64,000 nucleotides of DNA, taken from assembly GCF_057098645.1 (NCBI RefSeq), contig NZ_CM169472.1, one strand, 5' to 3'. This document shows positions 26,790 through 26,883 of the stretch, in pieces (position 1 is the first letter of the stretch; every line of letters starts with the position of its first letter). Both the position numbers and the translations under genes were made by a program. The notes beneath the pieces are model-generated. The model worked only from the letters and a program-made list of their open reading frames with translations, made no database searches and had not been told where the DNA came from.

Positions 26790-26805
26790 GATAAAACGTT
26801 TTACC
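26790..26805. promoter_or_regulatory. MalI operator-like box GATAAAACGTTTTACC
   Basis: Near-palindromic 16-mer in the malI-malX divergent promoter region. Confidence 0.55.
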
Positions 26806-26867
26806 TTTTATTTATCTTATACCCGCTATTATCGTTGCGTAATGTGATTTATGCCTCACTAAAATTT

Positions 26868-26883
26868 GATAAAACGTTTTATC
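26868..26883. promoter_or_regulatory. MalI operator box GATAAAACGTTTTATC (perfect palindrome)
   Basis: Perfect 16-bp palindrome in the malI-malX intergenic region, about 50 bp upstream of the malX start. Confidence 0.6.

Follow-up and report, generated by a model that had tools for sequence, protein, structure and literature searches.

The malI-malXY locus

The window (the whole stretch of DNA analysed, 64 kb in length) carries the gene of a LacI/GalR-family repressor, malI, in divergent orientation to the operon malXY. The malI gene (25731-26759, minus strand) encodes a protein of 342 aa that matched the NCBIfam model NF007449, 'Mal regulon transcriptional regulator MalI', over its full length (669.9 bits, cutoff 310), and RefSeq names the same open reading frame malI, at 100% identity. 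The operon occupies 26934-29708 on the plus strand. Its first gene, malX (26934-28526, plus strand), encodes a PTS maltose/glucose EIICB component (NF007509, 1120.3 bits, cutoff 665; RefSeq agrees) and has the Shine-Dalgarno sequence GAGGAG at 26921-26926 (plus strand), 7 nt upstream of the ATG at 26934. The second gene, malY (28536-29708, plus strand), encodes a PLP-dependent C-S lyase and MalT antagonist; it matched the PatB-family C-S lyase model TIGR04350 with 378 bits, and its RefSeq name is 'bifunctional maltose regulon transcriptional repressor/cystathionine beta-lyase MalY'. A spacer of 174 bp (26760-26933) separates malI from malX and houses two palindromic boxes, one per promoter. 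Box 1 lies 30 bp from the malI ATG, and box 2 lies 50 bp from the malX ATG.

The 4.2-kb block around these genes (25600-29800) was 100% identical to E. coli O145:H28 chromosomes, in which the RefSeq genes of this block are hdhA, malI, malX, malY, and add. The 291-bp regulatory region (26700-26990) was found at 100% identity in many strains, including the K-12 derivative C600, and experiments performed in K-12 therefore apply directly to this DNA. Among E. coli genomes, the regulatory 291 bp were retained at an identity of at least 99% in 5321 of 5413, whereas for 5362 of 5423 the malI-malX-malY 4.2-kb block showed an identity of only 95-99%; conservation is thus higher in the non-coding spacer than in the genes under its control. 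One of the 5431 matching places of the block was located on a plasmid, and a few genomes had two such places.

Two near-identical palindromes in the divergent spacer

Reading of the window sequence confirmed the two boxes at the coordinates given in the original prediction, i.e., GATAAAACGTTTTACC at 26790-26805 (box 1; flanked by gtgaca and tttt) and GATAAAACGTTTTATC at 26868-26883 (box 2; flanked by aaattt and ttct). Box 2 had been called a perfect palindrome, and it is one, because it is the same as its own reverse complement. The 62-bp gap that had been claimed between the boxes is also what we measured (26806-26867), corresponding to a start-to-start distance of 78 bp, and the gene identities from both NCBIfam and RefSeq agree with the divergent malI/malX context in which the boxes had been placed.

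Box 1 departs from perfect symmetry at a single position (A2/C15) and matches the palindrome of box 2 at 15 of 16 positions, the mismatch falling at a naturally degenerate Y position. Both boxes are palindromes of the type GATAAAA-CG-TTTTATC, and in their central CG step and their length they agree with LacI/GalR-family operators, which measure about 14-18 bp. A repeat finder reported the two boxes as an 18-nt direct repeat with 94% identity and as a 15-nt inverted repeat with 100% complementarity. When both strands of the 64 kb were searched for the palindrome with up to two mismatches, box 1 and box 2 were the only matches. The chance expectation was 0.03 matches, and none of 100 dinucleotide-preserving shuffles of the window gave two. 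A chance origin of the boxes was considered and ruled out by this shuffle test (2 found versus 0.03 expected).

The box pair is maintained from Escherichia to Vibrionaceae

One genome per species was scanned for AAAACGTTTT-N(53-83)-AAAACGTTTT, with exact 10-bp cores required. Most of the matches listed were unrelated to malI or malX, and at least 17 loci (17 species) had malI and/or malX homologues beside the boxes. Both genes were present and divergently flanked the box pair in at least 14 of these 17 loci; this set was selected on exact cores, so the frequency of malI-malX loci that lack the pair cannot be read off from it. The set comprises the E. coli reference, E. albertii, five Citrobacter, four Enterobacter, Lelliottia, a proteobacterial MAG, Serratia oryzae, Morganella psychrotolerans, Photobacterium lucens, and Vibrio rumoiensis, and the identity of MalI across it ranges from 93% down to 40%. 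Among the 17 species listed, the box pair was always in the malI-malX spacer, and this paired-operator arrangement is ancient, reaching the Vibrionaceae.

Conservation of the cores carries no weight here because the scan required them, and the positions around the cores are the informative ones. A 12-bp core was invariant in 34/34 boxes (10 of the 12 bp were required by the scan), with the T and A beside the required core, which the scan left free, also found in 34/34. One step further out the motif is R/Y: on the left, 18 boxes have A and 15 have G, and on the right, 28 have T and 5 have C. At the two outer edges, G was seen in 33/34 boxes and C in 32/34. Outside these 16 bp, the information content falls to about 0.3 bits. 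Given this flank conservation and the subsequent drop in information, the footprint is exactly 16 bp, with the consensus GRTAAAACGTTTTAYC, and the specificity-determining outer positions are GRTAAA...TTTAYC. The comparison also confirms that box 1, though 'imperfect' as a palindrome, falls inside the natural consensus of this operator, deviating only at the degenerate Y.

In E. coli and Serratia oryzae the boxes start 78 bp apart; E. albertii, Citrobacter, Enterobacter, Lelliottia, and Morganella have a start-to-start distance of 79 bp, and Photobacterium lucens and Vibrio rumoiensis one of 92 bp. When 11 spacers were aligned, the mean column identity was 59%, and against this background the half-sites of a CRP site, both -10-like hexamers, and the malX Shine-Dalgarno sequence were conserved, the latter being kept as AGGAGTCGT in 10 of the 11 aligned species, with Morganella deviating.

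Several side observations were made during this comparison. The base that is missing in E. coli falls between box 1 and the malI -10-like hexamer (26806-26815; alignment column 88), so that the operator is 1 bp nearer to the malI start than in the relatives. In addition to two full boxes, the Photobacterium lucens spacer (L104:9441-9731) has ATATAAAACGTTATCT near the malI start, a degenerate third version of the box that may be an extra operator in Vibrionaceae. In the genome of Shewanella sp. KJ10-1 (NZ_JAODOQ010000001.1), a dispersed repeat of about 130-145 nt was present on both strands in at least 36 copies (L067-L101, e.g., L067:1019-1161), in which the AAAACGTTTT-to-AAAACGTTTT span is 78 nt (at least 15 copies) or 93 nt (at least 21 copies). 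This repeat is unrelated to malI, resembles a MITE/REP-type element, and made up about 36 of the 120 matches listed by the core scan, so that further species with the box pair may exist beyond those named.

MalI is a LacI/GalR-family repressor with an invariant recognition helix-turn-helix

The regulator adjacent to the boxes has an N-terminal LacI-type helix-turn-helix (PF00356, residues 8-53, E = 7.7e-19) followed by a periplasmic-binding-protein-like sugar-binding core (PF00532, residues 65-341, E = 2.1e-107), i.e., the domain composition of the LacI/GalR family. None of the 16 MalI sequences compared departs from the helix-turn-helix AGVSV(S/T)TVSLVLSGKGRIS. Among them, identity was 62-98% in the DNA-binding head (residues 5-62) and went down to 39% in the core. 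From these comparisons, the predicted recognition head and the operator are conserved together across orthologues.

No MalI structure exists, and the closest solved relatives are LacI-family repressors such as CcpA, RbsR, and LacI. MalI residues 5-340 (of 342) align with LacI residues 2-325 (of 360); MalI ends where the LacI core ends and therefore appears to have no counterpart of the C-terminal tetramerisation helix.

The boxes resemble the operators of other LacI/GalR-family members (e.g., the PurR, GalR, CytR, and RbsR boxes), which are likewise 16-bp inverted repeats with a central CpG bound by a repressor with PF00356 and PF00532, and which likewise include one operator over the core promoter (box 2 here). 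The MalI boxes differ from them in the outer GRTAAA...TTTAYC positions.

A shared CRP site and the geometry of the two promoters

A CRP site with the core TGTGATTTATGCCTCA is located at 26843-26858, with its centre at 26850.5, between the two promoters and common to both. It is the sole match to TGTGAN6TCACA with up to two mismatches within the intergenic region. The same pattern was found 21 times window-wide versus 26.7 expected, a frequency no higher than chance, so it is the position and the conservation that carry the argument for a CRP site. In the spacer alignment, the TGTGA half-site and the C.CA of the other half were invariant or nearly so across genera.

Candidate -10 hexamers were assigned on both sides from sequence reading, conservation, and the spacing to the CRP site. 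The candidate for malI is TATAAG (26816-26821, minus strand), kept as TATAAR across species with T58, T59, and A62 nearly invariant, and the candidate for malX is TATCTT (26880-26885, plus strand), with TATCTTCTCGC conserved in Escherichia, Citrobacter, and Enterobacter. The distance from the CRP centre (26850.5) is 29.5 bp to each of them (TATCTT from 26880; TATAAG from 26821, minus strand), which with these candidate hexamers is the distance expected of class II CRP-dependent promoters. The first four bases of the candidate malX -10 fall within box 2 (a 4-bp overlap), and box 1 starts 10 bp downstream of the candidate malI -10 hexamer.

A strict sigma-70 consensus scan of the spacer found no promoter, and both -10 assignments therefore stay candidates, put forward on conservation and CRP spacing. 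This result fits promoters that are weak, activator-dependent, or non-canonical. With the candidate malX -10, +1 would fall near 26892, and relative to it the CRP site would be at -41.5.

In work by Lloyd et al. 2008 (FEMS Microbiol Lett 288:250) and Lloyd, Godfrey & Busby 2010 (FEMS Microbiol Lett 305:28), the malX operator reportedly extends from -24 to -9 and the malI operator from +3 to +18, and a single CRP site is said to be at -41.5 for malX and -43.5 for malI. On these reported positions, box 2, as the malX operator, would span -24 to -9, and box 1, as the malI operator, about +3 to +18 of the malI transcript. The same positions predict that the boxes are spaced by 78 bp and that the CRP centre falls at 26850.5 (25 bp left of the centre of box 2), both of which were observed. 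Together with the geometry, they would put the malX start near 26892 and the malI start near 26807.

Divergent promoters that share one class II CRP site are a known arrangement, and the spacer likewise has one CRP-like site positioned 29.5 bp from a -10-like hexamer on each side. The two hexamers mirror each other around the CRP centre, while the MalI boxes do not, their centres falling at -53 and +25 relative to it. Genomic SELEX recovered malI and malX, which are listed as known CRP targets (PMC3105977). The same review differs from the shared-site arrangement in assigning different CRP molecules to the malI and malX promoters (PMC3105977), a discrepancy with the single CRP-like site having no more than two core mismatches in the spacer (26843-26858). 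Titles from the Busby lab point to a single shared region, unlike that review. We also note a conserved TGTGA-like half-site at 26783-26787, which abuts box 1 and has no matching second half.

The boxes correspond to the characterised MalI operators

The MalI operators have been mapped genetically in K-12, and both binding at the MalI sites and the loss of repression in a malI deletion are already reported in the literature. The operators were reportedly first noted by Reidl et al. in 1989 and by Reidl & Boos in 1991. The boxes analysed here are at the same locus as the E. coli K-12 operators of the malX and malI promoters, with one site per promoter and an identical sequence. The host is an O145:H28-type strain and not K-12, with no sequence difference at this regulatory region.

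Work from the Busby lab (Sellars et al., PMC5543585) states that MalI binds a 16-bp target at both the malI and malX promoters and represses them. Supplementary oligos D71689 and D71690 of that study mark GATAAAACGTTTTATC as the 'MalI DNA site', and MalI::mCherry formed foci in vivo on an array of 20 MalI sites (PMC5543585). The published site and box 2 are identical, which bears out the operator identity in the original prediction; its remark that this is known biology was also right, as the 16-mer is already in use as a MalI site (PMC5543585). Both boxes are already known, characterised MalI operators, at the level of textbook biology.

Phenotypes of malI loss are available from two further studies. 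Loss-of-function mutations in malI arose in evolved ΔmetC populations, for which the authors hypothesise higher malY expression, malY being the substitute for metC predicted by their model (PMC6296033). Disruption of malI led to lambda resistance, alongside that of other lamB regulators (PMC7553319). These phenotypes are consistent with malY derepression and support the repression of malXY by MalI in vivo (PMC6296033, PMC7553319).

Probably independent operators versus alternative readings

We consider it almost certain that MalI, a LacI/GalR-family repressor, has its two operators in these 16-bp palindromes, one for each promoter, and no contradicting evidence was found in this analysis. A very improbable alternative is that the boxes form a cooperative pair of the lac O1/O3 or gal OE/OI type, in which the sites are connected by a MalI tetramer or by two dimers in contact with each other, so that the CRP site and both promoters are held in a loop. 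As in the lac and gal systems, two similar, here near-identical, operators flank a CRP-dependent promoter region, and their spacing is tightly kept at 78-79 bp across Enterobacterales. However, 78-79 bp corresponds to 7.4-7.5 helical turns, which would set the two dimers on roughly opposite faces of the DNA, and the 92 bp (8.8 turns) in Photobacterium and Vibrio means that the helical phase is not conserved. The MalI boxes thus differ from the lac and gal systems in a spacing that is half-integral in turns and varies between families, and MalI itself differs in that, judged by its alignment to LacI, it is predicted to be without the tetramerisation tail. Neither a repressor capable of bridging nor a phase-conserved spacing was found, and the kept spacing is more simply explained by a fixed CRP-to-hexamer geometry in two back-to-back class II promoters. 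In Lloyd et al. 2010, each MalI operator is said to repress its own promoter without need of the other. Looping was rejected on the helical phase, the variable spacing, and the missing tetramerisation tail, and these points indicate that the 'paired' boxes are two independent operators rather than a cooperative pair. A weaker form of coupling has a slim chance of being correct: the near-invariant, half-integral spacing of 78/79 bp could reflect a MalI-CRP-MalI nucleoprotein architecture with dimers on opposite faces of a CRP-bent centre, subtly coupling the two promoters, and in a related way the 1-bp contraction by box 1 in E. coli, together with a T-to-C change, could retune autoregulation relative to E. 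albertii and Citrobacter. Such coupling, if true, would run against the published picture of full independence.

Binding mainly by another LacI-family protein that shares the AAACGTTT core, such as PurR or Cra, with MalI being incidental, is extremely improbable. A central AAACGTTT with a CpG step is common to several LacI/GalR-family operators. Against such a regulator, the published MalI site is the same 16-mer and its arrays are bound by MalI::mCherry in vivo (PMC5543585), the box pair does not leave the malI/malX spacer in any of the 17 species listed, and the outer GRT/AYC positions are conserved along with the invariant MalI helix-turn-helix. The malI mutations that arose under selection for MalY activity in the ΔmetC background, where the authors cite malY derepression (PMC6296033), also speak for MalI. 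We give next to no credence to the idea that the palindromes act in RNA, as a 5'-UTR structure or a terminator, instead of as protein-binding DNA. Transcription of malI would include box 1 in the leader, and either palindrome can form a stem of 6-7 bp, but these stems consist largely of A-U pairs and are weak (-2.7 to -3.6 kcal/mol), the full predicted malI leader folds no better than shuffles (z = -0.53), and box 2, lying upstream of the predicted malX start, would be absent from the malX mRNA. A terminator consensus scan of the spacer found no terminator-like site, and an Rfam scan of both strands of the whole 64-kb window found no family at the gathering score. It is also the sequence itself that is conserved, with no compensatory changes. 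This reading was rejected, as folding showed only weak, non-specific structure.

A model for MalI repression of malI and malXY

For MalI acting at two operators, the following mechanism is proposed. By analogy with other family members, a MalI dimer would bind each palindrome; each half-site would receive one helix-turn-helix, and the hinge region would sit at the central CpG. Box 2 would lie between the shared class II CRP site and the malX start, overlapping the malX -10, and MalI bound there would exclude RNA polymerase, probably by steric occlusion, and keep malXY off even in the presence of cAMP-CRP. Box 1 would be just downstream of the malI start, within the region covered by RNA polymerase, and MalI would therefore limit its own synthesis (negative autoregulation). 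The two operators presumably act independently, one on each promoter.

Release of repression would lead to more MalX, the PTS transporter, and more MalY. MalY would then sequester MalT and the maltose regulon would be turned down, making malY the likely physiological output of the switch. Lambda resistance upon malI loss would be explained by the antagonism of MalY to MalT, and the malI mutations in ΔmetC populations fit the cystathionine beta-lyase activity of MalY.

The operators are already used as a tool, in the MalI/MalO fluorescent reporter-operator system. The comparative result is a modest addition to this knowledge, namely that, in species ranging from Escherichia to Vibrionaceae, the 16-bp operator GRTAAAACGTTTTAYC is kept in pairs alongside a MalI whose recognition head is invariant. 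The consensus also provides a clean motif for annotating the MalI regulon in other genomes.

One genome offers a natural variant of the locus. In E. coli FDAARGOS_1249 (NZ_CP069459.1, L122:2641-4020), an IS4 transposase gene replaces malI and both boxes and ends 32 bp before the malX ATG, and only query bases 216-291 of the regulatory region still match. This strain naturally lacks malI and its operators, and its malXY may be expressed constitutively or from the IS.
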